IMG/VR virus record: IMGVR_UViG_3300044796_000401
Reading direction: 5' to 3' (one strand)
Length of the DNA: 64,000 bases
Origin: a virus
Taxonomy: Duplodnaviria; Caudoviricetes
A program made the translations under genes and the position numbers. This document shows, in pieces, positions 10,698 through 43,000 of the stretch; the first letter of the stretch is position 1; every line of letters starts with the position of its first letter. The notes under the pieces are model-generated. The model worked only from the letters and a program-made list of their open reading frames with translations, was not told the DNA's origin and searched no databases.

Positions 10698-10701
10698 GTA
10701 G

Positions 10702-10830
10702 GTGCACAGTATCGTGGTTAAGAACATGACCCTCAGGAAATCCAATTCGACGAGAGCCGCCCGAAAGCATCAGGGCGACGGCCAGCGGTGGAATACCGCG
10801 GCGGGTCTGTTCGATGGGTGGGACGAGTAA
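10702..10830 (+). CDS. Putative attenuator leader peptide 2 (42 aa from GTG 10702; 34 aa from ATG 10726)
   Basis: MTLRKSNSTRAARKHQGDGQRWNTAAGLFDGWDE; contains a codon for all ten anticodon types downstream. Confidence 0.72.
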   Translation: MHSIVVKNMTLRKSNSTRAARKHQGDGQRWNTAAGLFDGWDE

Positions 10831-10855
10831 GAAGAGTCCCAATCCAAAGAATTCC

Positions 10856-10895
10856 AAACCCGCCGACCGAGAAGGTTCGGCGGGTTTTTTGTTTT
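10856..10895 (+). terminator. Intrinsic terminator/attenuator upstream of tRNA array 2
   Basis: AAACCCGCCGACC / GGTTCGGCGGGTTT then TTTTTTGTTTT; 5' arm can instead pair with CGGCGGGT (10799-10806). Confidence 0.82.
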
Positions 10896-10969
10896 AGGGG
10901 AGTCGTCCAACGGTAGGACTCTGGTCTCCAAAACCAGGTATGGCGATTCAAATTCGTCCTCCCCTGCCA
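10896..10969 (+). tRNA. tRNA-Trp(CCA)
   Basis: AGGGGAG/CTCCCCT, CTGGT-CTCCAAA-ACCAG, CCA. Confidence 0.92.
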
Positions 10970-11010
10970 AAGTTTAAGCCGTGTCCGTGAGTTAGCCGGG
11001 CACGCAGGGT

Positions 11011-11086
11011 GTGGCCGTGGCAACTATTGGCATGTTGCACCTGTCTGTGGAACAGGGTCTTGTGGGTTCAATTCCCACCGGTCACC
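11011..11086 (+). tRNA. tRNA-His(GTG)
   Basis: GTGGCCG/CGGTCAC, CCTGT-CTGTGGA-ACAGG, C73; no encoded G-1 or CCA. Confidence 0.8.
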
Positions 11087-11131
11087 CTTTCGTGACTTCC
11101 TGAGTATTAAGTAGGGTGCTCAGGAGGGTTC

Positions 11132-11974: not shown

Positions 11975-11981
11975 AAGTTTT

Positions 11982-12058
11982 GCGCCCGTAGCTCAATGGA
12001 TCAGAGCGTTCGGCTACGAACCGAAAGGCTGCGAGTTCGAGTCCCGCCGGGCGCACCA
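11982..12058 (+). tRNA. tRNA-Arg(ACG)
   Basis: GCGCCCG/CGGGCGC, TTCGG-CTACGAA-CCGAA, CCA. Confidence 0.93.
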
Positions 12059-12079
12059 GATTTTTGAAGAATGGGTTTT

Positions 12080-12157
12080 GCGCCTGTAGCTCAGTTGGAG
12101 CAGAGCGTTCGCCTCCGAAGCGAAAGGTCGCGAGTTCGAGTCTCGCTAGGCGCACCA
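12080..12157 (+). tRNA. tRNA-Arg(CCG)
   Basis: GCGCCTG/TAGGCGC, TTCGC-CTCCGAA-GCGAA, CCA. Confidence 0.93.
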
Positions 12158-12167
12158 GATTTGAGTT

Positions 12168-12254
12168 CGGCCCTGTCGGCAACTGGACAGTCGGCTTCGC
12201 TACGAACGCCCAGCCCTTCGGGGAATGCAGGTTCGAGTCCTGTCACCCGTTCCA
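12168..12254 (+). pseudogene. tRNA-like element: class II-like 3' half, no matching 5' acceptor strand
   Basis: CCC-TTCG-GGG variable arm, GCAGG-TTCGAGT-CCTGT T arm, CACCCGT-T-CCA; no complementary 5' strand found upstream. Confidence 0.5.
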
Positions 12255-12258
12255 GTTT

Positions 12259-12334
12259 TGGGAAGTGGCGCAATTGGGAGCGCAGCGGGTTCTGAACCCG
12301 AAGGTTGTTGGTTCGAACCCAACCTTCCCAACCA
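12259..12334 (+). tRNA. tRNA-Gln(CTG)
   Basis: TGGGAAG/CTTCCCA, loop TTCTGAA, CCA. Confidence 0.88.
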
Positions 12335-12339
12335 AGTTT

Positions 12340-12414
12340 TGGGGTGTGGTCTAACGGTAAGGCACCGCACTGTTAATGCGGACGATGAAGGTTCGAGTCC
12401 TTCTGCCCCAGCCA
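12340..12414 (+). tRNA. tRNA-Asn(GTT)
   Basis: TGGGGTG/TGCCCCA, CCGCA-CTGTTAA-TGCGG, CCA. Confidence 0.9.
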
Positions 12415-12432
12415 AGTTTTGAAGGGAGACTG

Positions 12433-12579
12433 ATGGGAACAGCTATTGCGGTGATTGCGAGTTTTATCTTGGGCGCTGTCATGGACCACTTCTTGGAAGC
12501 GCGAAGCGCCAAGGCCGTAACGACGGCGATCAAGCATTTGGAAGATAGCGTTGTGGCGGAGATACGGAAGTTGCGGTAA
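12433..12579 (+). CDS. Small membrane protein inside tRNA array
   Basis: GGGAG RBS; MGTAIAVIASFILGAVMDHF... Confidence 0.55.
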   Translation: MGTAIAVIASFILGAVMDHFLEARSAKAVTTAIKHLEDSVVAEIRKLR

Positions 12580-12590
12580 AAAGTTTCAGT

Positions 12591-12665
12591 TCCCCGTTAG
12601 CTCAGTGGCAGAGCGTTCGGCTGTTAACCGAAGTGTCGGGAGTTCGAATCTCTCACGGGGAGCCA
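12591..12665 (+). tRNA. tRNA-Asn(GTT), second copy
   Basis: TCCCCGT/ACGGGGA, TTCGG-CTGTTAA-CCGAA, CCA. Confidence 0.93.
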
Positions 12666-12671
12666 AGATTT

Positions 12672-12746
12672 GGGTCTGTAATTCAGCGGCAGAAAACCTC
12701 GCCCTTAACGAGGGGGCCGAGAGTTCGAGTCTCTCCAGACCCACCA
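12672..12746 (+). tRNA. tRNA-Lys(CTT) with C33
   Basis: GGGTCTG/CAGACCC, CCTCG-CCCTTAA-CGAGG, CCA. Confidence 0.87.
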
Positions 12747-12747
12747 A

Positions 12748-13275
12748 ATGCAGACTCTTATTATGAATTCAGTATTAAGAGTCATGGAACAGGAAAAAGT
12801 ATGCTGCCGATGTAAGGCTCCTAAACCAGTTGACGCTTTTAACTGGAAAAATCGAGCTAAAGGAATTCGACAGAGTTTTTGTCGGACGTGTAAAAAGGAG
12901 TATCAAGGCACTTGGTATAAAAATCACAGAGACGAGCAACTAGCACGAATCCTAGCTAGAAAAACTCGTATTGTGAAAGAAAACCAAGATCGCATTTGGG
13001 TTTATTTGAAGGAACATCCATGCGTTGGCTGTCCTGAGAATGATCCGGTTGTTTTAGATTTTGACCATGTACGTGGGGCTAAAAGAGTGGAAATCTCTAC
13101 GATGTTAGCCCACGGATGTGCATGGAAAAGCATCTTGAAAGAGATAGCTAAATGCGAAGTTCGCTGTAGAAATTGCCATCATCGCCGACATGCGGTGGAA
13201 CTTGGCTCTTGGCGAGTAACGCAAGCTTCACAAGATTGCGCTCATAGCTCAACTGGGAGAGCAGGAGACTCTTAA
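12748..13275 (+). CDS. HNH homing endonuclease (start uncertain; ATG 12763 or 12784 also possible)
   Basis: CCRC..CRTC; HPCVGC...LDFDHVRG...CEVRCRNCH. Confidence 0.85.
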   Translation: MQTLIMNSVLRVMEQEKVCCRCKAPKPVDAFNWKNRAKGIRQSFCRTCKKEYQGTWYKNHRDEQLARILARKTRIVKENQDRIWVYLKEHPCVGCPENDPVVLDFDHVRGAKRVEISTMLAHGCAWKSILKEIAKCEVRCRNCHHRRHAVELGSWRVTQASQDCAHSSTGRAGDS

Positions 13276-13313
13276 TCTCAAGGTTGCAGGTTCGACCCCT
13301 GCTGGGCGCACCA
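13238..13313 (+). tRNA. tRNA-Lys(CTT), canonical
   Basis: GCGCTCA/TGGGCGC, loop CTCTTAA, CCA. Confidence 0.92.
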
Positions 13314-13362
13314 GATTAAACTGGAAGGACTTTTGAGTTCTTCTGGTAGAAGGGAAGTTGTT

Positions 13363-13941
13363 ATGGGAACTGACACACTAGTGCTTGACATGACGGGAAC
13401 CCCCATCGGGTTCGTCGGCTGGCAGAAAGCCGTGACCATGGTGTGGAAAGATCGTGCTATGGTCATGGATGAAGATTCGGAAAAAATTTTGAGGTCGCCT
13501 TCGTTCGAGATGGGCATGCCCACGGTCATCCGTGCGAGGAACTGGGTGCGCCGCCGTCGGAAGACCGCGGTCCCGTTCTCCCGCCGCAACGTTGCGGTCA
13601 GGGACAACAGCGAGTGCCAGTACTGCGGCAAGCTGCTTCACCTGCCGGAGTACACGCTGGATCACGTGGTCCCGAGGGTCCAGGGCGGATCGAGCAACTG
13701 GAAGAACCTCGTGCTGGCATGCATCAGGTGCAACAAGCACAAGTCCGGGAGCACCCCGGAACAGGCCGGAATGCGTTTGCGCAGGATGCCGTTTGAGCCG
13801 AAGCCGGACGACCCGAAGTACAACTTCAAGCTTCGGATCAAGAAGATGCATCCGAGTTGGCGGCCGTATGTGGACGGCGGCTGGCTGTATGCCGAGAAGG
13901 CCGCCTACGCGTATTGGAACGTGGAACTCTCGGAGAAATAG
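13363..13941 (+). CDS. HNH endonuclease (McrA/HNH_5-like)
   Basis: VLDM..P...WQKAV...PTVIR...PFSRRNVAVRDNSECQYCG...TLDHVVPRVQGG..WKNLVLAC..CN..K. Confidence 0.88.
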   Translation: MGTDTLVLDMTGTPIGFVGWQKAVTMVWKDRAMVMDEDSEKILRSPSFEMGMPTVIRARNWVRRRRKTAVPFSRRNVAVRDNSECQYCGKLLHLPEYTLDHVVPRVQGGSSNWKNLVLACIRCNKHKSGSTPEQAGMRLRRMPFEPKPDDPKYNFKLRIKKMHPSWRPYVDGGWLYAEKAAYAYWNVELSEK

Positions 13942-13944
13942 GTT

Positions 13945-14179
13945 CCACGGGAGATCGGCTCAACGGAAGGTCAGGATTGAGCCGGACCATCGTGGTCGCC
14001 GCCAGGCGATGCCGGTGGCAGGACGGGAGAGGGCGATGTGGAGGCCCTCTCCCGTACGGAATTCGGTCGGTAGCTACGGCTCCCGGCGATAGCCCGAGGC
14101 GCTTAGTACAGGCGTTCGGGCGGGGAAGCTCTCTTGTCCCCCATCCTGCGGTTGAGAGTCCGTGGCCACGGATCGCAGG
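13945..14179 (+). ncRNA. Unidentified highly structured RNA candidate inside tRNA array 2
   Basis: Perfect 12-bp stem 14023-14034/14044-14055, 7-bp stem 13957-13963/13977-13983, CCTGCG/CGCAGG 14145-14179. Confidence 0.45.
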
Positions 14180-14185
14180 AAGCAC

Positions 14186-14261
14186 GGCCCCATAGTTCAA
14201 ACGGACAGAACGCTAGTTTCCTAAACTTGAAATCCCGGTTCGAGTCCGGGTGGGGCCGCCA
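14186..14261 (+). tRNA. tRNA-Arg(CCT)
   Basis: GGCCCCA/TGGGGCC, loop TTCCTAA, CCA. Confidence 0.9.
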
Positions 14262-14280
14262 GATTTTGATTGAAGGATGT

Positions 14281-14355
14281 TGCTTTGTCGTCTAATCGGC
14301 AGGACACAGGTCTCTGGAACCTGTTATAATGGTTCGAGTCCATTCAAAGCAGCCA
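14281..14355 (+). tRNA. tRNA-Gln(CTG), second copy
   Basis: TGCTTTG/CAAAGCA, CAGGT-CTCTGGA-ACCTG, CCA. Confidence 0.9.
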
Positions 14356-14621
14356 ATTTTATGACGAAGGCGAAGTCGCTCAAACAAGTCGTTGCAACCG
14401 CCCGCAAGAACGGGAAGATGAGGATGTCGCAGGCGTATTTCGACCTGATGCTTGAGGGGATGCAGATGCCCGAAGAGCTCGGTAAAGCAGCGGTAGAGGC
14501 GGCAAAAAGGAAGAAGTGATGCAGGCTCTCGCACAACTCGGTGTCGCAACGGGATTCGTCGTGATCCTTGTCGGGTTGCTCTTTCTTCCCAACCTCAGAC
14601 GAAAACGTTGATCCCACCTCC

Positions 14622-14698
14622 GCTCCCGTCGTCCAATGGAATAAGGACGCTAGTCTTCTAAACTAGGAATATGGGTTCAAGTCCCATCGGGAGCCCCA
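14622..14698 (+). tRNA. tRNA-Arg(TCT)
   Basis: GCTCCCG/CGGGAGC, CTAGT-CTTCTAA-ACTAG, CCA. Confidence 0.92.
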
Positions 14699-14708
14699 AT
14701 CTTTCCGT

Positions 14709-14784
14709 GGGCTGCTAATTCAATTGGCTAGAAGCGCAGACCTTTAATCTGTTAATTTCGGTTCGAGTCCGGAGCGGCCCACCA
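14709..14784 (+). tRNA. tRNA-Lys(TTT) with C33
   Basis: GGGCTGC/GCGGCCC, GCAGA-CCTTTAA-TCTGT, CCA. Confidence 0.87.
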
Positions 14785-23949: not shown

Positions 23950-24317
23950 AGGGCCTCCAGCTGCATAATACTACATCTTACGTTATCTTGTCAATTCCTG
24001 TTTTGGGCTGTCCGGGCGGAACTGATGGGCTGCCAGCCGCCGGTCCGCCGCGGCGATGCTGCATGGTGAAGGGCTTCCGCGCATAGAATAGAGGCTGGCG
24101 TGCCTCGTGCCGGGGAGCCACGACCGTAAAGTCTCTCATACTATGCATCGGCTCCCCGATTCAATTTTCTCCTAAACCGTTGAAAACCAAGGGCTTAAAA
24201 ATAGACGAAATCCCTTTCAGGCCGACAACCCGAAGTACCGAGGACGACCCCCAAAAGTACCAGTCCTCGGGTAGTCAAAGTCCCCCGTCCGCTGTATACT
24301 GTGGGCAGGAGAAACAA

Positions 24318-25271
24318 ATGACAAGCTTGAAGAAATCAAAGAACGCAAACCAAAACTTGGCAAAAGCAGCCAAGAAGGACGAGTTCTATACCCAGCTTGA
24401 CGACATCGCGAGGGAATTGAAGCACTACAAAAAGCATCTCAAAGGGAAGGTCGTGTTCTGCAACTGCGACGATCCGGAAGAGAGCAATTTCTGGAAGTAC
24501 TTTGAGAAGAATTTTGAATTTCTCGGACTGAAACGCCTCATCTCAACGCATTATGTGCCGAAGGGTCCGTCCTTCAAGCTGGAAATCATCGAAACCCGTA
24601 AATCGCCGCGTGTCGTTCGCACCCCACTGGAGGGCAACGGCGACTTCCGCAGCGAGGAATGCGTGGACCTGCTGGAACAGGCGGACATCATAGTTACAAA
24701 TCCGCCGTTTTCCCTGTTCCGCGAGTATGTCGCCCAGCTTGCCGAGCACGGCAAGAAGTTCATCATCATCGGACACCAGAACGCTATTGCCTACAAAGAC
24801 ATATTCCCACTCATAAAGGACAACAAACTTTGGTTAGGCTTCGGTTTCCAAGGTGGGGCGGCTCACTTTATCAATAAACATTACAAAGACTATGCTTCGG
24901 CAACTGACCACAAAGACGGCATGATTCGAGTCTCAGGCGTTCAATGGTTCACCAACCTCGACACCGCCAAGCGCCACGAAGACCTGATTCTTTACAAGAC
25001 CTACACGCCCAAGGAATACCCGACCTACGACAATTACGACGCCATCGAAGTCAGCAAGACAGGGAACATCCCCATGGACTACAGCAAAGTGATGGGCGTA
25101 CCCGTGACTTTTTTGGAAAAATACAATCCCGATCAATTTGAATTGCTTGGTTCAAATCGTGGTATTGACCAAGACCCAAATGGTGTTTATGGTCGAGGCT
25201 CAATGCTGAATGGCAAAGAAACCTACAAAAGATTATTCATCAAACGAAAAGTCAAGAAAGCGGGGGCTTAA
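24318..25271 (+). CDS. Adenine-specific DNA methyltransferase, EcoRI family
   Basis: KDEFYTQL..I..EL..Y...GKVVFCNCDDP..SNFWKYF, DIIVTNPPFSLFREY; AGGAG RBS after promoter 24272-24300. Confidence 0.9.
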   Translation: MTSLKKSKNANQNLAKAAKKDEFYTQLDDIARELKHYKKHLKGKVVFCNCDDPEESNFWKYFEKNFEFLGLKRLISTHYVPKGPSFKLEIIETRKSPRVVRTPLEGNGDFRSEECVDLLEQADIIVTNPPFSLFREYVAQLAEHGKKFIIIGHQNAIAYKDIFPLIKDNKLWLGFGFQGGAAHFINKHYKDYASATDHKDGMIRVSGVQWFTNLDTAKRHEDLILYKTYTPKEYPTYDNYDAIEVSKTGNIPMDYSKVMGVPVTFLEKYNPDQFELLGSNRGIDQDPNGVYGRGSMLNGKETYKRLFIKRKVKKAGA

Positions 25272-25274
25272 ATC

Positions 25275-26384
25275 ATGGACATCAAACTCAAGGAAATCAC
25301 CGTCCGCGAACTGACGGACGGCTATAAGGACAACGAGGAAGCCGGGGTCATCGGCTACAAAGGTCGGCTGGATATCCGCCCGCCGTACCAGAGGGAGTTC
25401 ATCTACAAGGACAAACAGCGAAACGCGGTCATCGATACCATCGCCAACGACTTCCCGCTGAACGTCATGTACTGGGCCGTTCGGAAAAACGGCGATTTCG
25501 AGATCATTGACGGCCAGCAGCGCACCGTTTCGATCTGCCAGTTTGTCACTGGGGATTTTGCCCTTGCCGTTTTCGGCAGCAAAGAGCAGCGGTTCTTCCA
25601 CAATTTGCAGGAAGACGAGAAAGAGAAAATCCTGAACTACAAGTTGATGGTGTACTGGTGCAGCGGCACGGATAGCGAGAGGCTGGGGTGGTTCAGGACC
25701 ATCAACATCGCCGGAGAGAAACTGATGGAGCAGGAACTCCGCAACGCCGTGTATGCCGGTCCTTGGGTCTCGGACGCCAAGCACTATTTCAGCAAGACCG
25801 GGTGCCCCGCATGGGGATTAGGCAGCGACTACCTTACGGGCTCGCCTATCCGGCAAGACTTCCTTGAAACAGCCATCGACTGGTTCGGCGAAAGCAAAGG
25901 CGATAGCATCGAAGATTACATGGCCAAGCAGCAGCACGAGCCAAACGCCCACGAGTTGTGGCTGTATTTCCAAGCCGCCATCAACTGGGTCACGGTCACT
26001 TTCCCCAAGCATCGCAAGGAAATGAAGGGCGTCGCTTGGGGAAAGTTGTACAACACGCACAAAGACGACAAGATCGATGCTGCCAAGCTTGAGGAAAAAA
26101 TCGCCCGTCTCATGGGCGATGACGATGTCACAAACAAAAAGGGCATCTATTCCTACGTTTTGGATGGAGAAGAACGAAGCCTGAATATCCGAGCCTTCAC
26201 CGACAACCAGAAACGAGAAGCCTACGAACGGCAGAAAGGCATCTGCCCCCGGTGCGAAAAGCAGTTTGAGCTTGAAGACATGCAAGGGGACCATATCACC
26301 CCGTGGCACCAAGGCGGAAAGACAACGGCTGACAACTGTCAGATGCTCTGCGCGGATGATAACCGGCGCAAATCTGGGAAATAG
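25275..26384 (+). CDS. DUF262 (GmrS-like) plus C-terminal HNH nuclease, probable restriction partner
   Basis: PPYQREFIY, IIDGQQRT, NIAGEKL..QELRNA; CPRC...GDHITPWHQGGKT..NCQMLC..DN..K. Confidence 0.88.
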   Translation: MDIKLKEITVRELTDGYKDNEEAGVIGYKGRLDIRPPYQREFIYKDKQRNAVIDTIANDFPLNVMYWAVRKNGDFEIIDGQQRTVSICQFVTGDFALAVFGSKEQRFFHNLQEDEKEKILNYKLMVYWCSGTDSERLGWFRTINIAGEKLMEQELRNAVYAGPWVSDAKHYFSKTGCPAWGLGSDYLTGSPIRQDFLETAIDWFGESKGDSIEDYMAKQQHEPNAHELWLYFQAAINWVTVTFPKHRKEMKGVAWGKLYNTHKDDKIDAAKLEEKIARLMGDDDVTNKKGIYSYVLDGEERSLNIRAFTDNQKREAYERQKGICPRCEKQFELEDMQGDHITPWHQGGKTTADNCQMLCADDNRRKSGK

Positions 26385-28746: not shown

Positions 28747-28759
28747 AGTGATCCTAACT

Positions 28760-30967
28760 ATGAACACTTCGACAAATCCAGCAATCGCCCACAGTGCCCA
28801 ACCAAAGGAGGGCATTCCAGAGCAGTCGTATGCGAACCACATCTCCAACGTGGTGTCCAACACGACTAGCAAGTGCGAGGACATGCTGAAGTACCATATC
28901 GCTGGTGCAAGGTTTTTGTCTTCTGCGAAGGCTGCCAGCGAATTTCACGACCTCGGCAAGCTCGAACCGGAAAACCAAGAAATCCTCCAAGGCCGCAAGA
29001 AGGGGAAGCTGATCAATCACGTAGACGCAGGTGTGGCACACCTTGTTGCGAACGGGCTTTGGGAGGCGGCCATAGCGGTAAATGCCCATCATTGGGGCTT
29101 GCCAGATTTGGTTGAGGAAGAAGAGAAGGGGCGTCGAAACGCCTGCCTGCGGGACGAAACAATTTTTGAACATACGAATCGCAGCATGGAGGACTTGATT
29201 AAGCGCCACGGCGAGAACGGGTTTTCTGTGTCTCTCCAGCCGGGTAACAACCCCCACTTGTCCGGCTTGGAGCGTCGGCTGCTGCTCTCTTGCCTCGTAG
29301 ACGCCGACCACTCCGACACCGGGCACAATTACCCCCAATACTTTCCTCCGCAAGTACCCGAATGCGGGTGGGAAGAGCGGCTCGCGGCGCTGAATGCCTA
29401 CGTCAATGGCTTGCCGAAAGGCTCCAAGAGCGACAAATTGCGCAGGGAGATCGCCGATGCTTGCCGCAGGGCCGAACTGGTGCCGCTCAGCACGCTGGAC
29501 AGCGCGGTAGGCACGGGCAAGACGTTATCGGCGATGGCGTACCTTCTGCGGCTGGCCATCCGGTTCAACCTCCGGCACATCTTCGTCGTGCTGCCGTACT
29601 GCAACATCATCCGCCAATCGGTAAAGGAGTATCGAAAGGCGCTGACCTTGCCCGGCGAAGACCCGAAATCGGTGGTGGCGGAGCACCACCACCTGATCGA
29701 ATTCGAACCCGTGCAGCAGCGGCATTTGACCACGCTTTGGAACGCCCCCATCATCGTCACCACGGCGGTGCAATTCTTCGAGACCCTGACCGCCGCCAAG
29801 ACCAGCCGCCTGCGCAAGCTGCACGAATTGCCGGGTTCGGCAGTATTTATTGATGAGGCCCACGCCGCCATGCCTGTCAAACTCTGGCCGTTCATGTTCG
29901 ATCAGATGAGGGAACTTGCCGAAGCATGGTCGTGCAAGTTCGTGCTGGGCTCCGGATCGTTGACCAAGTTTTGGGAGAGCCAGCGCATCATGGGCGAAGG
30001 AGTCGCCTTGCCGGACATTCCTGACCTAGTGCCTAACGAAATCAGGCGCGAGAGCGCGGAAGCGGAAAAAGAACGAACCGTCCTCAGGACGAAAAAGCAA
30101 GCCATGAGCTTGGATGATTTGACGCAATGGCTTATGGGCTTCAACGGCGCACGGCTCGTAGTCATGAACACCCTCAAGAACGCCGCCAAGCTCGCCCAAG
30201 CGCTCAGGGCTCAGGGGGTACAGGCATTGCACGTCTCCACCGCCCTCGCCCCGGCAGACCGCGAAAAAGTGCTGGAACAGGTCGAGAAGCGGCTCAACAA
30301 TGACCGAAACTTTGTCTTGGTCGGCACAAGCTGCATCGAAGCCGGATGGAACGTTTCGTTCGATGTCGGCTTTCGGGAGCGCAGCAGCCTCGTGAGCCTT
30401 GAGCAGATTCGCGGGCGAGTCAAGCGGCACGGAGGCGACGGCCCCCCGGCCGAGGTTTGGGATTTCAAGGCTGACGAGGACGACGATTCCTTTAGCCTCA
30501 ACCCCGAGTTTGCGAATAGCTCAGTCGTGCTAGGAAGCATGTTTGAAGATGGAAGCTTCGAGCAGGGGATGCACGCCGCAGACTTGGTGTTCCGAGCCTT
30601 GGAGGAAGAATGGAAATTGCAGCCCAAAGACGCGTGGGTGGCAACTATCCGTGAGGTGGAGAAAAGTGGGTGTTATAACAGCAGGAACCCCGAGAAAATA
30701 TTCACTGTAAGCCGAATGGCTCGGCTGATCACGCAGGAAACCCTGACCGTTGTGACCGATCCCGTCCTCGCCAAAAAGATGAAGGATGGGAAGCAGGTCA
30801 CTCCGCAGGAAGTGCAGCGGCACAGCGTCCAGATTTGGGAGCAGAAATTCGAGAAGCTGCATTTGGAGAAAAAGCTGGCTCTGATTGCCGACGACGTTTA
30901 CGAGTGGACGCTGGGTTATGACCCGGATTTTCTGGGCGTGATGGAGGGATTGCTGCCTCTCATTTAG
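28760..30967 (+). CDS. cas3: Cas3 HD nuclease-helicase (compact)
   Basis: AHS..Y..H, FHDLGK, H.DAG, AHH, SCLVDADHSD; AVGTGKT, IDEAH, GSGS, VMNT, GTSCIEAG, GRVKRHG. Confidence 0.92.
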   Translation: MNTSTNPAIAHSAQPKEGIPEQSYANHISNVVSNTTSKCEDMLKYHIAGARFLSSAKAASEFHDLGKLEPENQEILQGRKKGKLINHVDAGVAHLVANGLWEAAIAVNAHHWGLPDLVEEEEKGRRNACLRDETIFEHTNRSMEDLIKRHGENGFSVSLQPGNNPHLSGLERRLLLSCLVDADHSDTGHNYPQYFPPQVPECGWEERLAALNAYVNGLPKGSKSDKLRREIADACRRAELVPLSTLDSAVGTGKTLSAMAYLLRLAIRFNLRHIFVVLPYCNIIRQSVKEYRKALTLPGEDPKSVVAEHHHLIEFEPVQQRHLTTLWNAPIIVTTAVQFFETLTAAKTSRLRKLHELPGSAVFIDEAHAAMPVKLWPFMFDQMRELAEAWSCKFVLGSGSLTKFWESQRIMGEGVALPDIPDLVPNEIRRESAEAEKERTVLRTKKQAMSLDDLTQWLMGFNGARLVVMNTLKNAAKLAQALRAQGVQALHVSTALAPADREKVLEQVEKRLNNDRNFVLVGTSCIEAGWNVSFDVGFRERSSLVSLEQIRGRVKRHGGDGPPAEVWDFKADEDDDSFSLNPEFANSSVVLGSMFEDGSFEQGMHAADLVFRALEEEWKLQPKDAWVATIREVEKSGCYNSRNPEKIFTVSRMARLITQETLTVVTDPVLAKKMKDGKQVTPQEVQRHSVQIWEQKFEKLHLEKKLALIADDVYEWTLGYDPDFLGVMEGLLPLI

Positions 30968-30970
30968 GAC

Positions 30971-30999
30971 TTGACAGGGGTTTTTATTCATGTTATGCT
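30971..30999 (+). promoter_or_regulatory. cas5-cas8-cas7 promoter
   Basis: TTGACA-N17-TATGCT; GGAGG RBS before ATG 31022. Confidence 0.7.
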
Positions 31000-31021
31000 G
31001 TCTTAACGGATGGAGGATCGC

Positions 31022-31624
31022 ATGAAGGATGAAAAGATTTACGAGGTTGCACTGGAGATCGCAGGACCGATGGCGCAATTCACGCGCCCCGACTCCGGCA
31101 ACTCATTTGTGTCCTATCCAGTCCCGACTTTCGCTGCGGCAGCGGGCATTTTCAGGAACGTCGCATGGTGGAAGGACGTTTACATCGAGCCGATACGGGT
31201 GGAAATTTGCACGCCTGTCAAATTCATGCGGCTGACGCAGAATTATCATGGGCCGTTCAAGAAGCCCGGCAATAACAATTTCCAGCTTAGCATGCTGGCG
31301 CTTGTGGATGTCTGCTACAAACTTTACGGACGCACCCGCAGGCTCGGCGACGGATTCACGCCGGGATACAACCCCCTGCATGCCTTGCAAGAGCAGTTCA
31401 GCCGCCGCCTGAAGCAGGGCAAGCTGTTCCGCACCCCGTGCCTCGGCCTCTCGGAATGCACGCCGAGCTACTTCGGTCCGCTGCGGGATTCAACCTTTGC
31501 CCAGAAAGACATCAACTTGACGATTTCCAGCATGCTTTTCCGCACATTCAACGACGCCGGGGAATACGCGCCGGAATTCCGGCAGAACGTGAAGATCAAG
31601 GACGGAGTGCTGATTTATGCTTAA
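31022..31624 (+). CDS. cas5: Cas5 (type I-C-like)
   Basis: EIAGPMAQFTRP...SYPVPT.AAA.GIF, L.DV.Y, F.RRL.QG..FRTPCLG. Confidence 0.88.
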   Translation: MKDEKIYEVALEIAGPMAQFTRPDSGNSFVSYPVPTFAAAAGIFRNVAWWKDVYIEPIRVEICTPVKFMRLTQNYHGPFKKPGNNNFQLSMLALVDVCYKLYGRTRRLGDGFTPGYNPLHALQEQFSRRLKQGKLFRTPCLGLSECTPSYFGPLRDSTFAQKDINLTISSMLFRTFNDAGEYAPEFRQNVKIKDGVLIYA

Positions 31625-33503
31625 CGAAATCCATGCCCTCGCTGAAGCGCTGAAAGCCCGCAACGTGCTTGTTCCGGAGCGCCACCCTTGGATACAAAGC
31701 GTGGGCAAGAGCAAACCTATGTTCCGAGTCTTTCTCTCCCCCGCAGGCATCGTCAAATCCGTTGAGGAAATATCCCCAGAAGCTCGCAGCGGCATGTGCT
31801 TGATCCGCAGGGGCAACCACTTTTCGTTTCCCGTAACGAACCTGACGCTCAGTGACGACCCCAAGACGATCAAGAAGAACGCCGCGCAGCTTGGGCGGCT
31901 GCTGGAATTCGCCGCCGAACTCGGCAAGGTGTTCGACAAGGACAACGCAAAGCTCCTCGCCACGACGTTGCTGATCGAACGATTGAAAAAGGTCGAGCCG
32001 TCTGACCTTCTCAACCAGATCATGGTTAAAATCAAGTCTGACAAGGAAGAGGACATCACCGTGGTGCTGGACATCGTTCACACCGAGAAAGCGGCCTACT
32101 TGGTCAACGACCCCAAGGCAGCGGAGGAATGGAACGCCGCTCTTCTCGCTTGCGCCAAGCCCGAAGGGGCGGAAAAAGTATGCTCCCTGAGCGGGGTTTC
32201 GGCGGCAACGAGTTCCGACCCCATCGGTCCGGTCAACCTCCCGGCGCTCGGCAAGACATCCCTTTATTCGCGGTTCGGCGAGGTCCCCTGCCTTGAGCGC
32301 TACGGTCGATCCGACCGGGATGGGTTCTTGGTTTCCGACGCTAGCATCGCGGAAGCTCGGGACGCCATCCAGTTTCTTGCTACGGGGGACGAACGCAAGA
32401 ATCGGACGTATGCCGCGATCGGCAAAGATTCGCTGCTGATCGCCTATCTCGACGAGCGCCCCGAACTGGTTGCGGATTATGTTTCCCCGTTCCGGGACAT
32501 CGACGAAGCCGACATCAGCCAGTACGAAGAGCGCTGCTCCAAACTGTTCCAGATGCTCCACGCAAAGAAGGTCAGCGGCCTCGACCATTTGAGCGTCTTG
32601 GTGATCGAGAAGGTGAACAAAGGAACCAAGCGGGTCGTTTTGGACGAGCACCTCACGGTCGATGCCATCCGCAAGGCAGTTCAAGACTGGCGCGACGGCT
32701 TGACCAATTGCCCGACCGTCGAAACTTTTATTCCGCAGAAAAAGGGAGAGCCCGCCAAGTGTGTCAAGAACGAGCCGTTTTCCCCGACCTGGTTCAGCCG
32801 CAGCTTCGGCAAGCCGTGGATTCGGGGCGGGGACGAGAACACCAAGATTCGCGGGCTGTCGATCCCCGAAGCCTATTCGCTTTTCCTGCATGGCGGAACG
32901 CGGGCGGCGGAGCAAGCGCACACCCTGCTCCAGCGGTATGTCGGCTTGGTCAAGTCCCTCCTGTACGGTTTCGGGAAGGGTGAACAGGGCTTCAAGGTAA
33001 TGGCTCGGCAGGAAGCGCTTCGGCAGGAAGCGCTTCGGCAAGAGGCGCTTGTTGCGGTGTCGATTTTGGGGTTGTTGCTCTACAAACAGGGACGGTTGAA
33101 GGAGGAATACATGCGGGACATTTATTTTGCGATTGGGCAGGGCTGCAAGGCAGCCGACGGCTTGCACAAGCGGTATTGCGCAGGAGTTCGGGACGGCGAC
33201 GTGCCGTCGCAACTGCTGGGCAACTCCTCGCTGACGGCCATCATCAGGAACCCGGCCAAGGGCCTGAAGATGCTGCTCGGCGACAGCCGCCTGCGGGTCT
33301 ATATGGGCTGGGTGGAGCAGAACGGCGACGGCCTCGGCATCGGGTTCAAGCGCCAGCTTGAAGCCGTAGCCGAAGCGATTTCCGGGCAGGACCTGCCGAA
33401 GCGCTTGACCCCCGAGCAGGAAGCGGAATTGATGCTGGGCTGGCTTGCCCCCCTTCCGAAGCTGGCGAACAGCGGCTCGGACAAGACAGTTGCACAGCAG
33501 TAG
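31617..33503 (+). CDS. cas8c: Cas8c-like large subunit, probably with internal Cas11 start at 33111
   Basis: Position between cas5 and cas7; CSLSG, LYSRF..VPCL.RYG; AAGGAGG RBS before in-frame ATG 33111. Confidence 0.75.
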   Translation: MLNEIHALAEALKARNVLVPERHPWIQSVGKSKPMFRVFLSPAGIVKSVEEISPEARSGMCLIRRGNHFSFPVTNLTLSDDPKTIKKNAAQLGRLLEFAAELGKVFDKDNAKLLATTLLIERLKKVEPSDLLNQIMVKIKSDKEEDITVVLDIVHTEKAAYLVNDPKAAEEWNAALLACAKPEGAEKVCSLSGVSAATSSDPIGPVNLPALGKTSLYSRFGEVPCLERYGRSDRDGFLVSDASIAEARDAIQFLATGDERKNRTYAAIGKDSLLIAYLDERPELVADYVSPFRDIDEADISQYEERCSKLFQMLHAKKVSGLDHLSVLVIEKVNKGTKRVVLDEHLTVDAIRKAVQDWRDGLTNCPTVETFIPQKKGEPAKCVKNEPFSPTWFSRSFGKPWIRGGDENTKIRGLSIPEAYSLFLHGGTRAAEQAHTLLQRYVGLVKSLLYGFGKGEQGFKVMARQEALRQEALRQEALVAVSILGLLLYKQGRLKEEYMRDIYFAIGQGCKAADGLHKRYCAGVRDGDVPSQLLGNSSLTAIIRNPAKGLKMLLGDSRLRVYMGWVEQNGDGLGIGFKRQLEAVAEAISGQDLPKRLTPEQEAELMLGWLAPLPKLANSGSDKTVAQQ

Positions 33504-33614
33504 CGGTGTCGCCCGGTGCAATATGGCAAGTGGAAACACTTCCGGCTTCGGGCGTGAATTGAAGAAGGAAGCAAATTTGGGTGGCGACCTACCGCCGATA
33601 CATGAAAGGCTTTT

Positions 33615-34520
33615 GTGAAGAACGCGAAGGAACTGAAAGAACTGAACCGCGCAACCCTGCTGCTCGTGGTTGAGGCGGTGAACTCCGGGATCAACCAAGA
33701 CCCGGACAACGAGAGCGACCCGCGCACCCAGCCGGATGGGCGCGGGCTGTGCACTCCCGTGTCATTCAAGGCGAAGCTCCGCACGCTGGTGGCCGACAAG
33801 GAATTCAACCTCTGGAAGGAACTGTCCAAGAACCTTTCGTTGGCGGACAAGGAATTCGACGTGCTTGAGCGCCGGGACACGGTGCTGAAAGAAATCTTCG
33901 ATATGACGCCGGAAGCGTTCAAGAGCAAGTATTGGGATGCCCGGTTGTTCGGCAACACCGCGCTTGAAGGCAAGGACTCGGGCGGTGAGAAGGCGGAAAA
34001 GGACCGCTTCGTCCGCACCGGGGTCGTGCAGTTCGGGCTGGGCGTCAGCGTTTGCCCGGTGGACATCATCCGCCTGACGACCACTGGCCAGCGCGCCGTG
34101 CAGGCGGGCAAGAGCCGCGCCATGGCTGCGCTGGGATACAGGGTCGTCAAGCACGGGCTGTACGTGATGCCGGGGTATGTCAACCCCGCCGTAGCCTCGA
34201 AGAGCGGCTGCACCGCGACCGACGTGGAACTCATGAAGCGCGTCATTCCCTACGCCTATTCGCACACTACCTCCTATGTCCGCAGCGAAATCAACATCCT
34301 GCACGCATGGTACGTGGAGCACAAGTCGCCCCTCGGGTCGTGCCCCGACTGGAAGATCATCGAGGCCCTCACCCCGAAGCGGATCGGCGACCCGGAGACG
34401 CCGAGCCAGTCCCGCAAGGACTACGAAATCCCTTCCGCGCTGCCGGAAGAACTCCGCAAGCAGGTCAAGTCGGCCGTGGACCTGATGGAGTACATGGCAC
34501 AAGCGACCGACGCGAAGTAA
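33615..34520 (+). CDS. cas7: Cas7 (Csd2-like)
   Basis: VVEAVNSGINQDPDNESDPR....G..TPVSFKAKLR, WDARLFG, TGVVQFG...S, YRVVKHGLY. Confidence 0.9.
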   Translation: MKNAKELKELNRATLLLVVEAVNSGINQDPDNESDPRTQPDGRGLCTPVSFKAKLRTLVADKEFNLWKELSKNLSLADKEFDVLERRDTVLKEIFDMTPEAFKSKYWDARLFGNTALEGKDSGGEKAEKDRFVRTGVVQFGLGVSVCPVDIIRLTTTGQRAVQAGKSRAMAALGYRVVKHGLYVMPGYVNPAVASKSGCTATDVELMKRVIPYAYSHTTSYVRSEINILHAWYVEHKSPLGSCPDWKIIEALTPKRIGDPETPSQSRKDYEIPSALPEELRKQVKSAVDLMEYMAQATDAK

Positions 34521-34576
34521 GGATGCTCGCAAACGGCGGGGCAGCACGTTTATTTGCATAGACTTGCTGCCCTGGA

Positions 34577-35303
34577 CTTGTCAGGTACTTGAAACTATCT
34601 GTGAATTGAAACATGCAGACAAGGGGCTTGGAAGCCGCGTGGAATATCTTGTCAGGTACTTGAAACTATCTGTGAATTGAAACCAAGTCACTTGCACGGG
34701 CTGCACAAACGGTTCCACCTTGTCAGGTACTTGAAACTATCTGTGAATTGAAACGTGAAAAACCTGCGCTCCCAGCTTCCGATTCCCGCTTGTCAGGTAC
34801 TTGAAACTATCTGTGAATTGAAACCAAGACACAAGGCACAGTGACCGTTCAGTCTTGCTCTTGTCAGGTACTTGAAACTATCTGTGAATTGAAACTGAGC
34901 CCCCATCGGGCGGCGTACCACGGGAAGGCCTTGTCAGGTACTTGAAACTATCTGTGAATTGAAACACGTTCTGCGCCACGTAGGATGCGGCCTTGTCGGC
35001 CTTGTCAGGTACTTGAAACTATCTGTGAATTGAAACATTTCCGTTCCGGGAATTTGCGACATCATGCCTGGCCTTGTCAGGTACTTGAAACTATCTGTGA
35101 ATTGAAACATTACCCGCAATGGGGCGGTGACCCCCGCATCGACTTGTCAGGTGCTTAAGACACCTGTGAATTGAAACATGTTATGCTGGTCTTACAACAG
35201 TTAGCCGCACTGCAAGGTGCGTGAATTGAAACAATCCCGAGGCGAATGGCAGGAAGCGGATCAAAGCGTAATGTTTGTCAGGTGCTTAAAACACCTGTGA
35301 ATT
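34577..35303 (+). CRISPR. CRISPR array: 8 identical 36-nt repeats, 3 divergent distal repeats, 10 spacers
   Basis: CTTGTCAGGTACTTGAAACTATCTGTGAATTGAAAC at 34577, 34648, 34719, 34789, 34860, 34930, 35001, 35073; variants at 35143, ~35213, ~35274; spacers 34-36 nt in the conserved part. Confidence 0.97.
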
Positions 35304-39741: not shown

Positions 39742-40587
39742 ATGAAAAATACTTTGGTTCTGAACGATTGGCATGTGGGTAGCCCATTTGGGTTGCAACA
39801 CCCGAACTATGTGAACGTGGACGGCCAGCACATCGACCTGAGCCACGATTCTAAACAAGACTATCTCTATGACAACTTTGAAGACAAGCTGGAAAGCATC
39901 CGGCGCGACCACGAAATCCACTACATCCAATACATGGGCGATATTATCGACGGTCTTCCGGCGAAAGGCGATTTCACGGAATCCGCACTTCCGCGGATAG
40001 AAGATCAAATTCGCTGTGCACGGATGCTGCTTGAAGAGGTCCGCACCCGGTTCCCGAAAGCGATCTGGAATCCGTTTGTTTTTGGCACGAAGAACCACGA
40101 GAAACCCGAGGATACTCGCCGCCTCGCCATGGATTTCATCCGCACCAAATGCCGCATGACTTACAACATGCGGGTAGTTGAAGACGGGGCTGACGATGTT
40201 TTGGTCCGGTTCCACCACGAGGTCGGTTTCAGCGGCGCTGTGGCCGGACGTTCGGGTTCCATGGAACGGGAGATCGTCCAAGGCATGCTCGCCTACGCAG
40301 AAGGCTCCACGGAACGCTTCGATGCCGAGGTGCGGGGCCACGTCCACTACCACGCCCGCGTCTTGCAGCGGAACATTTGGCTGGTGACCGCTCCGAGTTT
40401 TCAAATCCAAAATCTCTACGGCACGAAACCCACGCCCAACCGTTTCCCGTCTCTGGGTTTCTTGGTTGTACATACGGACGGGCGGATGCGGCGGCACGGT
40501 CAAAATCCGGTGGATTTCACCGCCTACACCTTTAATCACCCCAAGACCAAGGCGACCACGCCGGAGGAAGAGAATGGCATTTCCTAA
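39742..40587 (+). CDS. Calcineurin-like metallophosphoesterase
   Basis: NDWHVG, MGDIIDG, GTKNHE, FHH, GHVH. Confidence 0.85.
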   Translation: MKNTLVLNDWHVGSPFGLQHPNYVNVDGQHIDLSHDSKQDYLYDNFEDKLESIRRDHEIHYIQYMGDIIDGLPAKGDFTESALPRIEDQIRCARMLLEEVRTRFPKAIWNPFVFGTKNHEKPEDTRRLAMDFIRTKCRMTYNMRVVEDGADDVLVRFHHEVGFSGAVAGRSGSMEREIVQGMLAYAEGSTERFDAEVRGHVHYHARVLQRNIWLVTAPSFQIQNLYGTKPTPNRFPSLGFLVVHTDGRMRRHGQNPVDFTAYTFNHPKTKATTPEEENGIS

Positions 40588-40825
40588 AACGCCCGGCAAG
40601 GTCATCCTGATCCCCAAGAACATTTGGGACACAACATTGGCGGAGAAACGCAAGCAGCAGCGCAAGGCGTTTGACAACAACAAGCCGCAAGAGCCGCTCA
40701 AGGTCCCGCCGAGGGCGGAGCCTGAGCAAAAAAAGTTTAGCAAGCCCGTGCCTTACGCAGCGCCGGATGGTCCGCAGTTTAGACAGCCGCCGCCGCGAAA
40801 ACGGTTCGGGCTGCTGAAGAAGTAA
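40574..40825 (+). CDS. Hypothetical basic protein
   Basis: GGAGG RBS, overlaps upstream stop. Confidence 0.55.
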   Translation: MAFPKTPGKVILIPKNIWDTTLAEKRKQQRKAFDNNKPQEPLKVPPRAEPEQKKFSKPVPYAAPDGPQFRQPPPRKRFGLLKK

Positions 40826-40847
40826 ATCTGACACGAAAAGAGGATGT

Positions 40848-41423
40848 ATGAAATACATAGTTGAAGTAAAGGGGATGGAAGGCTCCAGCCTTCTGTTCGG
40901 CAAGCACATCGAGTCCCCGAAACGAGATGGAGAAAACGAAGGAGCCTATGAAGACCGCGTATGGCGGGAACGCCTACACGTCGATTCCGAGGGCTTCGTT
41001 GTTTTCCCGGTCGAGGGTTTCAAGCGCTCGCTTGAAACCGGAGCCAAGGGAAAGAAAACCGGAAACGGCAGGCAGACTCTCACCGACTCGTTCCTCAAGG
41101 CGGTCGTGAGCAACAATGCCTTTGCCCAGATTCTCACCCCTAAGGGCAAGCCGATCAAGGCGGATAGCGTGGAACACCTCTGCTTGTTCGTTCCCAGCAA
41201 GGGCGAACGGAACGGCCCCAAGCGGGTCGCCAAGAACTTCCCGTGCATCCCTGAGTGGAAGGCGGCATTTCCCTTGACCGTGCTTCTCGACGACCTCATC
41301 ACCATGGACGCCATCAAGCGGGTTGTTCCCGATGCTGGGCTGCTTGAGGGCATCGGCTCCATGCGTGCCGGGAACGGCAACAATAACGGACGATACGAAC
41401 TCGTTTCCATCCGCAAGGCGTAA
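40848..41423 (+). CDS. Stand-alone Cas7/RAMP-like protein (191 aa)
   Basis: beta1 with G.SLLFG; GFVVFPVEGFKRSL resembles the RAMP P.IPGSSLKG helix; C-terminal Gly-rich loop AGLLEGIGSMRAGNGNNNGRY. Confidence 0.7.
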   Translation: MKYIVEVKGMEGSSLLFGKHIESPKRDGENEGAYEDRVWRERLHVDSEGFVVFPVEGFKRSLETGAKGKKTGNGRQTLTDSFLKAVVSNNAFAQILTPKGKPIKADSVEHLCLFVPSKGERNGPKRVAKNFPCIPEWKAAFPLTVLLDDLITMDAIKRVVPDAGLLEGIGSMRAGNGNNNGRYELVSIRKA

Positions 41424-42236
41424 ATCTGACGAGACCAGAAGCAGGGACTTTCGAGCCTCTGCTCCTGCTCTCAAGGCAGGAATCCGATCCGATCTGATGG
41501 GATACGACATGACAAGATGCGACTGGAACCGATATGATGCGACATGCTGAGATTAGAGGCAAGGGGCTTCGGCCCTTTGCTCCTGCTCTCAAAGGCAGGA
41601 CTTAGACCTGACCCGATAAAATACGATGTGATATGACCCGGTGGGACGTGACAAGACCCGACACGTTGAGATTCGAGGCAAGGGGCTTCGGCCTTTTGCT
41701 CCTGCTCTCAAGGCAGGCTGTGATTAGATAAGATATGATGGGACGTGACGGGACGTAACTTGACGCGCCAAGCTGAGATTCGAAGCAAGGGGCTTCGGCC
41801 CTTTGCTCCTGCTCTCAAGGCAGGCTGAGATAAGATGCGACGTAACAGGGTGTGATGTGACGTGATTTGTTAAGACGTGGCGGGACATGGCGAGACCAGA
41901 GGCAAGGGGCTTCGGCCCTTTGCTCCTGCTCTCAAAGCAGGAATCGTTAAGATAAGAATAGATGCGGCGCGATGCGATTCGATTGGATTGGAAGGGATTG
42001 GTTCTGATAGGTTGAGTTCAGAAGCAAGGGGCTTCGGCTCTTTGCTCCTGCTCTCAAAGGCAGGATGCGATTTGATTTGATTCGATTGGATTGGACAGGA
42101 TTGGACACGATGGGACCAGACATGTTGAGACCTGAAGCAAGGGCTTTCGAGCCTTTGCTCCTGCTCTCACGGATGGGATGCGATGTGATGGGACATGACG
42201 TGATGGGACTGGATAAGACGCGCTGAGACGAGACAC
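41424..42236 (+). repeat. 7-unit array: conserved ~45-50 nt double-hairpin block alternating with 13-16 in-phase GAY-NN pentamers
   Basis: Block GARGCAAGGGGC-TTCG-GCCYTTTGCTCCTGCTCTCAA(A)GGCAGG with GARGC at 41438, 41556, 41675, 41782, 41899, 42021, 42134; tracts unique in NN. Confidence 0.95.
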
Positions 42237-42237
42237 G

Positions 42238-42272
42238 AAAAAGGAGCCCAGAAATGGGCTCTTTTTTGTTTT
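42238..42272 (+). terminator. Intrinsic terminator closing the pentamer array
   Basis: GAGCCCA (42244-42250) / TGGGCTC (42255-42261) then TTTTTTGTTTT. Confidence 0.85.
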
Positions 42273-42517
42273 CCCAGTATTGTATCCCGAAGCGGAGACG
42301 CACAACGACGGATGCAGTGCGTGTCGATCCTCCATCGCCGGGAAGGAAAGATGATAAGCCTGAGATTCAAGTACTTGTTCCTCATCTGCCCCAACGGGTG
42401 CTACGCACGGGAGTTGCGCGCCATCGGCGGTAGGGCGGCATGCGCCAAATGCGGTTATTGGCTGCTCGTGCTCACGATTGACGACCTGCGGAAGAACGGT
42501 CCCCGGAAGGGGAAGAT

Positions 42518-42868
42518 ATGGACGAAGGTGAATCCGCTGTGGACCGGGGGAAAGTGCGAATAGCGTTTGCGGGGGACAGGCGCATGTCGCGCCAAAAACG
42601 GTCCATCAAAAACCGCAGAGTAAGCTGGCACGCCATCACCGTGCCGATGGGCGGGCGGACCTCAAAGGTTATCTACGTTACTGACAAGCAGCTTGCCCGG
42701 CTCAACGCCGTCCCGGTCGGCAAGGAAGTGTTCCTGAGCAACGCCTACTGCATGATCGGCAGCGGCTGGGTGATCCGCACCGTGGACGGGTTGCAACACA
42801 TGCCGTTCCCGAGCGGCGCGAGCAGGGACGAGGACGTTTGCCTGCTGGAAAATATGATGAAGGATTAG
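42518..42868 (+). CDS. Hypothetical protein (start uncertain)
   Basis: Phage-like codon usage in 3' part. Confidence 0.5.
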   Translation: MDEGESAVDRGKVRIAFAGDRRMSRQKRSIKNRRVSWHAITVPMGGRTSKVIYVTDKQLARLNAVPVGKEVFLSNAYCMIGSGWVIRTVDGLQHMPFPSGASRDEDVCLLENMMKD

Positions 42869-43000
42869 CCGTATCCTTTTGACTGCGTTGCAAGCCCTTT
42901 GCTTTTAATACAATACAGTAGAGGTAGTTAGAATCGCCCGGCCCCTGTATACTATTGTGGAAGTCAACCCACTTTCCCTTCACGGGTACGGAGGCCGTAA

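Follow-up and report, generated by a model that had tools for sequence, protein, structure and literature searches.

A probable phage VIPR locus of the non-canonical GAC/GAY-NN class with seven guide tracts and a structured tail

Downstream of a gene for a small RAMP protein in the genome of a very large phage lies an array of tandem pentamers that we read, with a probability of roughly 0.8, as part of a phage VIPR (Viral Interference Programmable Repeat) of the non-canonical GAC/GAY-NN class, acting through a four-step mechanism that is set out below. The stretch of DNA that was analysed as a whole (64,000 nt of IMG/VR record IMGVR_UViG_3300044796_000401) is referred to as the window. An earlier sequence-only reading of this DNA had likened it to phage VIPR systems; these systems are real (bioRxiv 10.64898/2026.04.26.720920, 10.64898/2026.04.26.720927), and their defining features are present at the locus. 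These are a RAMP fold of a single RRM that bears a thumb and a glycine-rich loop and is kin to the founding Vipr entries, runs of 9-16 tandem pentamers that join a fixed trinucleotide to a hypervariable dinucleotide (seen in all seven tracts), a conserved structured 3′ tail for each tract (for the last unit, the terminator hairpin), and a minimal, mostly viral locus that lacks adaptation genes and a CRISPR array. The scaffold is GAY and not the canonical GGY, and an adjacent vap gene, a typical but not universal feature of VIPRs, is absent. Because related consensus sequences are allowed and GAC/NN is listed as non-canonical in the preprints, the GAY scaffold places the locus in a variant class that still belongs to the VIPR family.

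VIPRs were described only in 2026, and all experiments so far have been on GGY/NN systems. The locus in the window is a clean natural example of a GAY scaffold; it has seven guides, and its structured tail is distinct. Its value comes from the GAY scaffold with replaced G2 contacts, the structured tail, the missing vap gene, and the canonical VIPR and CRISPR-Cas system that share its phage genome.

A stand-alone RAMP protein

The vipr gene, with a Shine-Dalgarno-like GAGGA 7 nt 5′ of its reading frame, encodes a protein that the sequence-only reading had called RAMP-like or Cas7-like and had proposed for structural comparison. The AlphaFold2 model has a pLDDT of 94.8 and was built on an alignment of 121 of the 669 cluster representatives that were recovered (E <= 1e-3) in an exhaustive HMMER search. 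The best 50 PDB matches listed for the model are all Cas7-type (Csm3, type VII Cas7, Cmr and type I-A Cascade), in agreement with the earlier description. Among the AlphaFold DB clusters the top match is X1U2U4 (E 4.7e-12, TM 0.73/0.78), and ranks 1-4 and 6 are taken by X1U2U4, A0A0F9A1L0, A0A661D0E2, A0A2D6XG06 and A0A1F4YLN4, which are the five founding Vipr entries in the methods of the VIPR preprint (bioRxiv 10.64898/2026.04.26.720920, 10.64898/2026.04.26.720927). The thumb motif RVAKNFP corresponds to residues 126-132 and the glycine loop GIGSMRAGNGNNNG to residues 168-181. No Pfam family matches the 191-aa ORF at E <= 10; in PHROGs, the protein matches phrog_4652 (E 2.2e-5), the family that is also matched by the Vipr of Escherichia phage SUSP1 (E 8e-96), whose VIPR locus was found in KT454805 through its GGY/NN repeats. 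BLASTP aligns the two proteins directly (E 2e-5; ~30% identity over 60 residues), and the alignment spans the thumb and the glycine loop. The 191-aa protein is a Vipr, that is, a stand-alone ancestral RAMP.

In its organization the locus resembles the SUSP1 VIPR, which is of type II: both are phage-borne minimal loci with a stand-alone RAMP of ~190 aa bearing a thumb and a glycine loop, and with a downstream array of ~100-nt vrRNAs made of 9-16 pentamers and a structured 3′ tail. The Cas7-type proteins Csm3, Cmr4 and type VII Cas7 share the RRM core, thumb and glycine loop with Vipr, and Cas7 backbone subunits polymerize along a guide RNA at a fixed period, flipping bases out at set steps. The similarity to Cas7 subunits is nevertheless distant (TM ~0.5, identity 10-17%), and Vipr has a period of 5 nt and sequesters three bases, as against 6 nt and one base in Cas7. 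Unlike class 1 CRISPR effectors, the locus has neither other cas genes in its operon nor repeat-spacer units. Membership in the class 1 CRISPR-Cas effectors (Cas7/Csm3) was considered and rejected, given the lack of a cas gene in the operon, the pentamer-periodic array, and the homologous loci without cas genes.

Table 1. Features of the vipr locus, in window coordinates; the fourth column gives the position of the conserved block core.
Feature	Coordinates	Strand	Core at	Remarks
vipr gene	40848..41423	+		191-aa Vipr (ancestral RAMP); AlphaFold2, AFDB, PDB, PHROGs, BLASTP
Block 1	41424..41480	+	41462	conserved hairpin block right after the stop codon; no tract 5′ of it
Tract 1	41481..41555	+		15 pentamers; last two, GCTGA GATTA, are the start of the conserved tail
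Block 2	41556..41599	+	41580	UUCG-capped hairpin and CCTGC...GCAGG
Tract 2	41600..41674	+		15 pentamers; strain differences at 41623, 41624, 41633
Block 3	41675..41716	+	41699	
Tract 3	41717..41781	+		13 pentamers
Block 4	41782..41823	+	41806	
Tract 4	41824..41898	+		15 pentamers
Block 5	41899..41940	+	41923	
Tract 5	41941..42020	+		16 pentamers; run TC-TG-TG-xG-TG common to tract 6
Block 6	42021..42063	+	42045	
Tract 6	42064..42133	+		14 pentamers; most regular of the seven
Block 7	42134..42171	+	42158	first hairpin intact, second (CCTGC...GATGG) degenerate
Tract 7	42172..42236	+		13 pentamers; ends in GCTGA GACGA GACAC
Terminator	42237..42268	+		hairpin and T-run; -21.5 kcal/mol, z = -4.7

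Seven tracts of pentamers

The non-coding stretch 3′ of the vipr ORF is 845 nt long and carries seven conserved blocks alternating with seven in-phase tracts (Table 1). The blocks share the core CTCCTGCTCTCA, which recurs at spacings of 107-122 nt. The seven blocks, tract starts and pentamer counts of the sequence-only reading agree exactly with those obtained by script, as do its hand counts of pentamers that begin with G (96/101) or with GAY (74/101). Position 1 is thus strongly fixed (1.72 bits), and position 2 is A in 82 pentamers and G in 5 (1.01 bits). Position 3 is a pyrimidine in 97 of the 101 (T in 60, C in 37; 0.84 bits), and positions 4 and 5 are near-random (0.12 and 0.01 bits). 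Within the array a base recurs five positions on with a frequency of 0.45, compared with 0.25 for the remainder of the window, and a scan of both strands over the whole 64 kb found no second region with the 5-nt periodicity of the array.

The core of each tract holds 10-14 guide pentamers, which is within the 9-16 published for vrRNAs. In every tract the penultimate unit closes with TGA, and GA comes next; the sequence-only reading had noted this as a near-terminal pentamer that always ends in GA. After tract 7, the place of the tail hairpin of the other units is occupied by a terminator, which had likewise been recognized as strong and whose hairpin, T-run and folding energy bear this out (Table 1).

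Strains differ almost only in the variable part of the pentamers. One related locus (L145) is identical to the window, and three others (L144, L146 and L147) show 3-4 differences in 4.4-6.6 kb, of which three fall at positions 4/5 of two pentamers of tract 2 and change AC to GT and AT to GT. The NN positions account for ~3% of the sequence in the 6.6-kb comparison and for ~11% in a shorter one of 1.8 kb, and the near confinement of strain differences to them is the pattern of guide-like evolution. A hint in the window (N4 38% G) that NN composition is related to codon position did not extend to the clade at large, and the idea was dropped.

Structured tails and unit boundaries

The blocks between the tracts fold into stable and conserved structures. 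Folds of single units have z-scores of -3.1 to -4.7, and the consensus fold (RNAalifold, on six blocks of the window and three of the homologous locus L004) is a long hairpin of 19 pairs, 8 of which, in the inner helix, stay paired through compensatory double changes between the window and L004. In the outer helix of the tail, UGAGA pairs with UCUCA. Since UGAGA is composed of the TGA end of the conserved unit and the GA that opens the next, the conservation of the TGA-GA unit would be explained by its pairing in the structured tail. The UCUCA sequence doubles as the loop of the CCUGC/GCAGG hairpin, and the two helices may either compete or be combined as a pseudoknot; because UGAGA, UCUCA and the bases of the hairpin are invariant, covariation cannot separate the two foldings. 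The SUSP1 tail includes a pseudoknot (bioRxiv 10.64898/2026.04.26.720920, 10.64898/2026.04.26.720927); the tail in the window differs from it in its long UUCG-capped hairpin and in the sequence of the possible pseudoknot. Other GAC/NN loci have short AU-rich spacers in place of the tail hairpin, which implies that the hairpin tail is specific to a subclade. No credible Rfam match was found at E <= 1 in 40000-43000, so that none of the known ribozymes, among them the hammerheads present in some VIPR arrays, is represented in the blocks.

The boundaries of the units pose a puzzle in that block 1 has no tract 5′ of it and the last tract is followed by a terminator instead of a block. If a unit consists of a tract plus, as 3′ tail, the hairpin that comes after it, block 1 is left without explanation; alternatively, the blocks are cut internally, like CRISPR repeats. 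Block 1 could be a leader or the 5′ handle of guide 1.

Relatives and the code of the clade

Only two close homologues were found, both at 44-45% identity. One (L001) has two GAY/NN tracts directly 3′ of its vipr homologue, and the other (L004) has four GAC/NN tracts 5′ of the gene, separated by blocks that share the CTCCTGCTCTCAAGGCAGG element with the window. A metagenome scan for the hairpin-tail subclade returned distant relatives only, and the one examined (L137) is of the GxGRFR type. The sequence-only reading had suggested that homologues be searched for periodic arrays, and such arrays are the rule: with a neutral period-5 detector, which recovered the GGT/NN of SUSP1 as published, same-strand GAC/NN or GAY/NN tracts were found in 22/22 IMG/VR loci with the glycine-loop pattern GxG[SAT]MR, and relatives with a GxG[S/A]MR loop have such same-strand arrays in 25/25. 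As the arrays accompany all 25 same-loop relatives, the GAY/NN (GAC/NN) code is, on these sequence comparisons, a property of the whole Vipr clade.

According to an October 2026 preprint (bioRxiv 10.64898/2026.10.21.760802), non-canonical VIPR arrays with GAC/NN, CAC/NN, WGT/NN and TGH/NN occur beside Vipr-like folds. The window clade is evidently the GAC/NN class of that report, and the window locus therefore adds a member to an existing class rather than founding a new one. The earlier suggestion that GAY/NN with a double-hairpin repeat would be a distinct variant needs correction in so far as the code is clade-wide and GAC/NN had already been reported. Position 3 is Y in the window (T 60, C 37) and C in the non-canonical GAC/NN arrays of the preprint. 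That report is computational, is based on entropy periodicity, and covers motifs and folds only; measured against it, the present analysis adds the correlation of residues with bases, the structure of the tail, strain variation and the co-resident systems.

An accessory (vap-like) gene of 161-209 aa is found in 20/22 loci of the clade. A profile built from it has no match at E <= 10 in the window, L001 or L004, and the neighbours of vipr in the window have no informative family match. The window also differs from SUSP1 in the absence of a vap1 homologue.

Residues that may set the scaffold

Cryo-EM structures of the SUSP1 Vipr show that G1 is read by H17 and D177, that G2 lies between R138 of the thumb and W178 of the G-loop, and that the pocket of Y3 includes R179; mutation of GGY to GAY abolished silencing (fig. 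S12; bioRxiv 10.64898/2026.04.26.720920, 10.64898/2026.04.26.720927). The substitution that abolished SUSP1 function is the one that distinguishes the GAY scaffold of the window from GGY. In the alignment with SUSP1, the window residues are F131 (for R138), S171 (D177), M172 (W178) and R173 (R179), so that the contacts R138, W178 and D177 are replaced, and the change of scaffold from G to A coincides with the loss of the G2-contacting Arg and of the aromatic residue.

For a wider comparison 80 loci of a second clade (loop GxGRFR) were fetched, and 88 non-redundant loci were tabulated. Three of these (L016, L021 and L037) were mis-parsed in the residue table; on re-parsing L016 and L021 are SM, and L037 has the loop GFGAMR. 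Wherever loop residue x1 is S, A or F, the scaffold has A2 in every correctly parsed locus, among them four loci of the RF clade with an FF or FS loop. Loci with x1 = R mostly have G as the second base (47), and otherwise T (5) or A (3); of the last three, two are mixed A/G and one is the mis-parsed L037. Immediately before the thumb proline, 9/9 CGC/NN loci have Y and 66/68 G1 loci have F. On the tree these contrasts reduce to two independent changes of x1, each accompanied by the base change that was expected, and to two well-supported events for the thumb residue; with only two independent changes of x1, a tree-aware test cannot reach significance. The link between Vipr residues and scaffold bases is therefore suggestive, as seen in sequence comparisons, and not proven. 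The available text of bioRxiv 10.64898/2026.10.21.760802 makes no mention of the G-loop or thumb. In the window Vipr, the correlation singles out F131, S171 and M172.

Proposed mechanism and alternative explanations

In the first step of the mechanism that we favour, vipr and the array would be transcribed rightwards, probably together, as far as the terminator. The transcript would then be processed to seven vrRNAs of ~110 nt, each made of 10-14 guide pentamers, the TGA-GA units and a GC-rich hairpin tail. By homology to the SUSP1 structures, Vipr protomers would polymerize on this RNA, one per pentamer, with the thumb and glycine loop holding G-A-Y and the two variable bases exposed. The exposed dinucleotides would finally read a gapped double-stranded DNA target (NN-x-NN-x in published systems), and the transcription of a competing phage, satellite or prophage would be blocked. 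That GAY is gripped and NN read transfers a published mechanism to a different scaffold; both the gapped code and a target in DNA are taken from work on GGY systems, and skip length, DNA target and silencing outcome are all extrapolated from the SUSP1 work. Because the residues that contact G2 are replaced, the window Vipr is expected to load its own GAY RNAs only, and not those of the GGY/NN VIPR in the same phage.

Target searches bear chiefly on the last step. With skips of 0-3, no self-targets above the level of shuffled guides were found in the window or in 76 kb of phage sequence that takes in the second VIPR, and no targets above shuffled guides in 757 kb of collected loci, where the value of a lone 20/24 match came from loci chosen by the seed itself. 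In IMG/VR, the exact 9-unit seed of tract 1, a scan that would detect near-perfect targets only, gave 0 matches, and the 8-unit seed of tract 6 gave 19 whose flanks match at chance level (1-6 of 12). Such searches with exact seeds are weak negative evidence. The lack of a target under the 1-nt skip rule is what would be expected if the locus were a VIPR relative with a different output, be it RNA recognition, another gap rule or a nuclease encoded elsewhere, and not transcriptional silencing. The absence of the clade's accessory gene from the window, the replacement of the SUSP1 G2-contact residues, by which the geometry could differ, and the existence of published VIPR types III-V with nucleases (bioRxiv 10.64898/2026.04.26.720920, 10.64898/2026.04.26.720927) point the same way. 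The fold and the pentamer architecture are, however, the same as in characterized systems, and the target search was shallow, with exact seeds only. A different output is an unlikely alternative, to which we give perhaps an eighth of the weight.

Far less probable is that the periodic region acts as DNA, as an array of protein sites (iterons, or a packaging or replication element) that lies beside a RAMP-like gene by chance. In its favour, 5 bp correspond to one half of a turn of the helix. The gene and the first three units are covered, over 41202-41811, by contigs of one metatranscriptome, but the same library also covers the surrounding 20 kb patchily, and DNA carry-over fits this coverage equally well. 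Against a DNA element, the tracts lie on the strand of the gene in 25/25 loci of the clade, compensatory changes keep the tail hairpins paired, a terminator closes the array, strains vary at the variable positions and not at the fixed ones, and in SUSP1 the homologous RNAs are expressed and are purified together with Vipr (bioRxiv 10.64898/2026.04.26.720920, 10.64898/2026.04.26.720927). Least credible of all is an unusual CRISPR array, with the 50-nt blocks as repeats and the tracts as spacers, that would serve the type I-C module of the phage. Genes for a Cas3-like protein, Cas5, a Cas8c-like protein and Cas7 (5e-42) do lie at 28748-34520, but this module has a CRISPR array of its own (36-nt repeats, 34577-35109), captured foreign spacers would not carry G-A-Y every 5 nt, and relatives that lack cas genes altogether carry the same arrays; the idea is refuted by the periodicity inside the would-be spacers.

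The partners that the sequence-only reading had suggested for the locus find no support. The supposed metallophosphoesterase 5′ of vipr matches Metallophos at E 0.02, below the Pfam cut-off, and the Cas3-like gene lies 10 kb away in the complete type I-C module, which itself is ~6 kb 5′ of the vipr locus and is served by its own array.

Two VIPRs and a CRISPR-Cas module in one phage

The window derives from a very large phage and carries 18 tRNA genes together with phage DNA-metabolism, exonuclease and HNH genes. It shares 99.99% identity with a 208-kb ENA scaffold, so that the phage scaffold is at least 208 kb long. On the same scaffold, 10.3 kb before the start of the window and 51 kb from the GAY locus, there is a second VIPR, composed of ~ten GGY/NN units and a hairpin (L142:1158-1230) and a second Vipr of 219 aa (L142:1278-1937; phrog_4652, E 4.5e-15). 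This paralogue resembles the SUSP1 Vipr in its GVGDYR loop and in the Arg that precedes the thumb proline; it is 26% identical to the window Vipr. The type I-C module lies between the two VIPRs, and one virus thus holds both the proposed ancestor (Vipr) and the descendant (Cas7). The presence of a GAY and a GGY/NN VIPR in one phage provides a ready test of the choice of RNA by Vipr and of non-cross-loading.

A tentative proposal, which we hold to be somewhat more likely wrong than right, is that a tiny protein code may set the scaffold. The residue after GxG would specify base 2 (Arg for G; Ser, Ala or Phe for A) and the aromatic residue before the thumb proline would specify base 1 (Phe for G; Tyr for C). 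The phage would then deliberately carry two orthogonal VIPRs, GGY/NN and GAY/NN, beside its type I-C CRISPR system, and divergence of the scaffold would have been a way of avoiding hijack by the decoy or solo vrRNAs of competitors, as described for SUSP1 satellites. If this were true, the sequence would suffice to predict natural orthogonal pairs of Vipr and vrRNA, which could then be employed in parallel. Peat, pond and viral metagenomes contain many contigs that encode the exact window Vipr protein.

Additional VIPR systems and codes

The phage has a second VIPR, of canonical code, 10.3 kb upstream of the window start (L142:1158-1937, on an upstream piece of the same phage), where about ten GGY/NN units and a hairpin are followed by the gene for a 219-aa Vipr that matches phrog_4652 (E 4.5e-15) and has the loop GVGDYR. 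A gene for an NAD-dependent DNA ligase flanks the system, one half on each side (L142:1-1156 and L142:1930-2820), and the VIPR of Escherichia phage SUSP1 likewise adjoins a DNA ligase gene. Within the main array, the dinucleotide run TC-TG-TG-(G/A)G-TG is common to tracts 5 and 6 (window 41941-42133) at differing positions, which suggests either duplication and divergence of a guide or two guides against variants of one target.

Additional scaffold codes are found in the GxGRFR-loop clade of IMG/VR loci (L057-L136), namely CGC/NN, GTC/NN, mixed GRC/NN, and GAC/NN. In this clade CGC/NN is always accompanied by a tyrosine before the thumb proline, and GAC/NN occurs at loci with the loop GxGFFR or GxGFSR. 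Many of the tracts have fixed terminal units, such as GACAA-GACAA or CGCAA-CGCAA-CGTAT.

Candidate accessory gene

The GAC/NN relatives with a GxG[SAT]MR loop (L016-L036) share a conserved gene of 161-209 aa, located ~200-700 nt downstream of vipr in 20 of 22 loci and flanked on either side by vrRNA tracts. This gene, which has no match in Pfam and is absent from the window, is probably the accessory gene (vap) of the GAC/NN clade.

Other features of the window

The phage encodes a type I-C CRISPR-Cas module (window 28748-35109), near which neither cas1 nor cas2 was seen. The He_PIG genes are a short distance upstream of the repeat-containing ORF (9139-9819), in which the repeat maintains the reading frame at 11 codons per unit, and the HNH gene is the next after that of the methyltransferase.

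Features of the window other than the main VIPR locus
Feature	Position	Remarks
tRNA genes	364-14784	18, in three clusters
Genes with He_PIG Ig-like domains	7142-8169	
Tandem repeat	9369-9761	33 nt x 11.9 copies
EcoRI-type adenine methyltransferase	24180-25271	PF13651, E 1e-121
HNH gene	25275-26384	terminal HNH domain
Cas3-like helicase	28748-30967	Cas3-like_C_2, E 2.4e-15
Cas5	31010-31624	
Cas8c/Csd1-like gene	31617-33503	weak match
Cas7	33615-34520	PF05107, E 5e-42
CRISPR array	34577-35109	~7 repeats, 36 nt each
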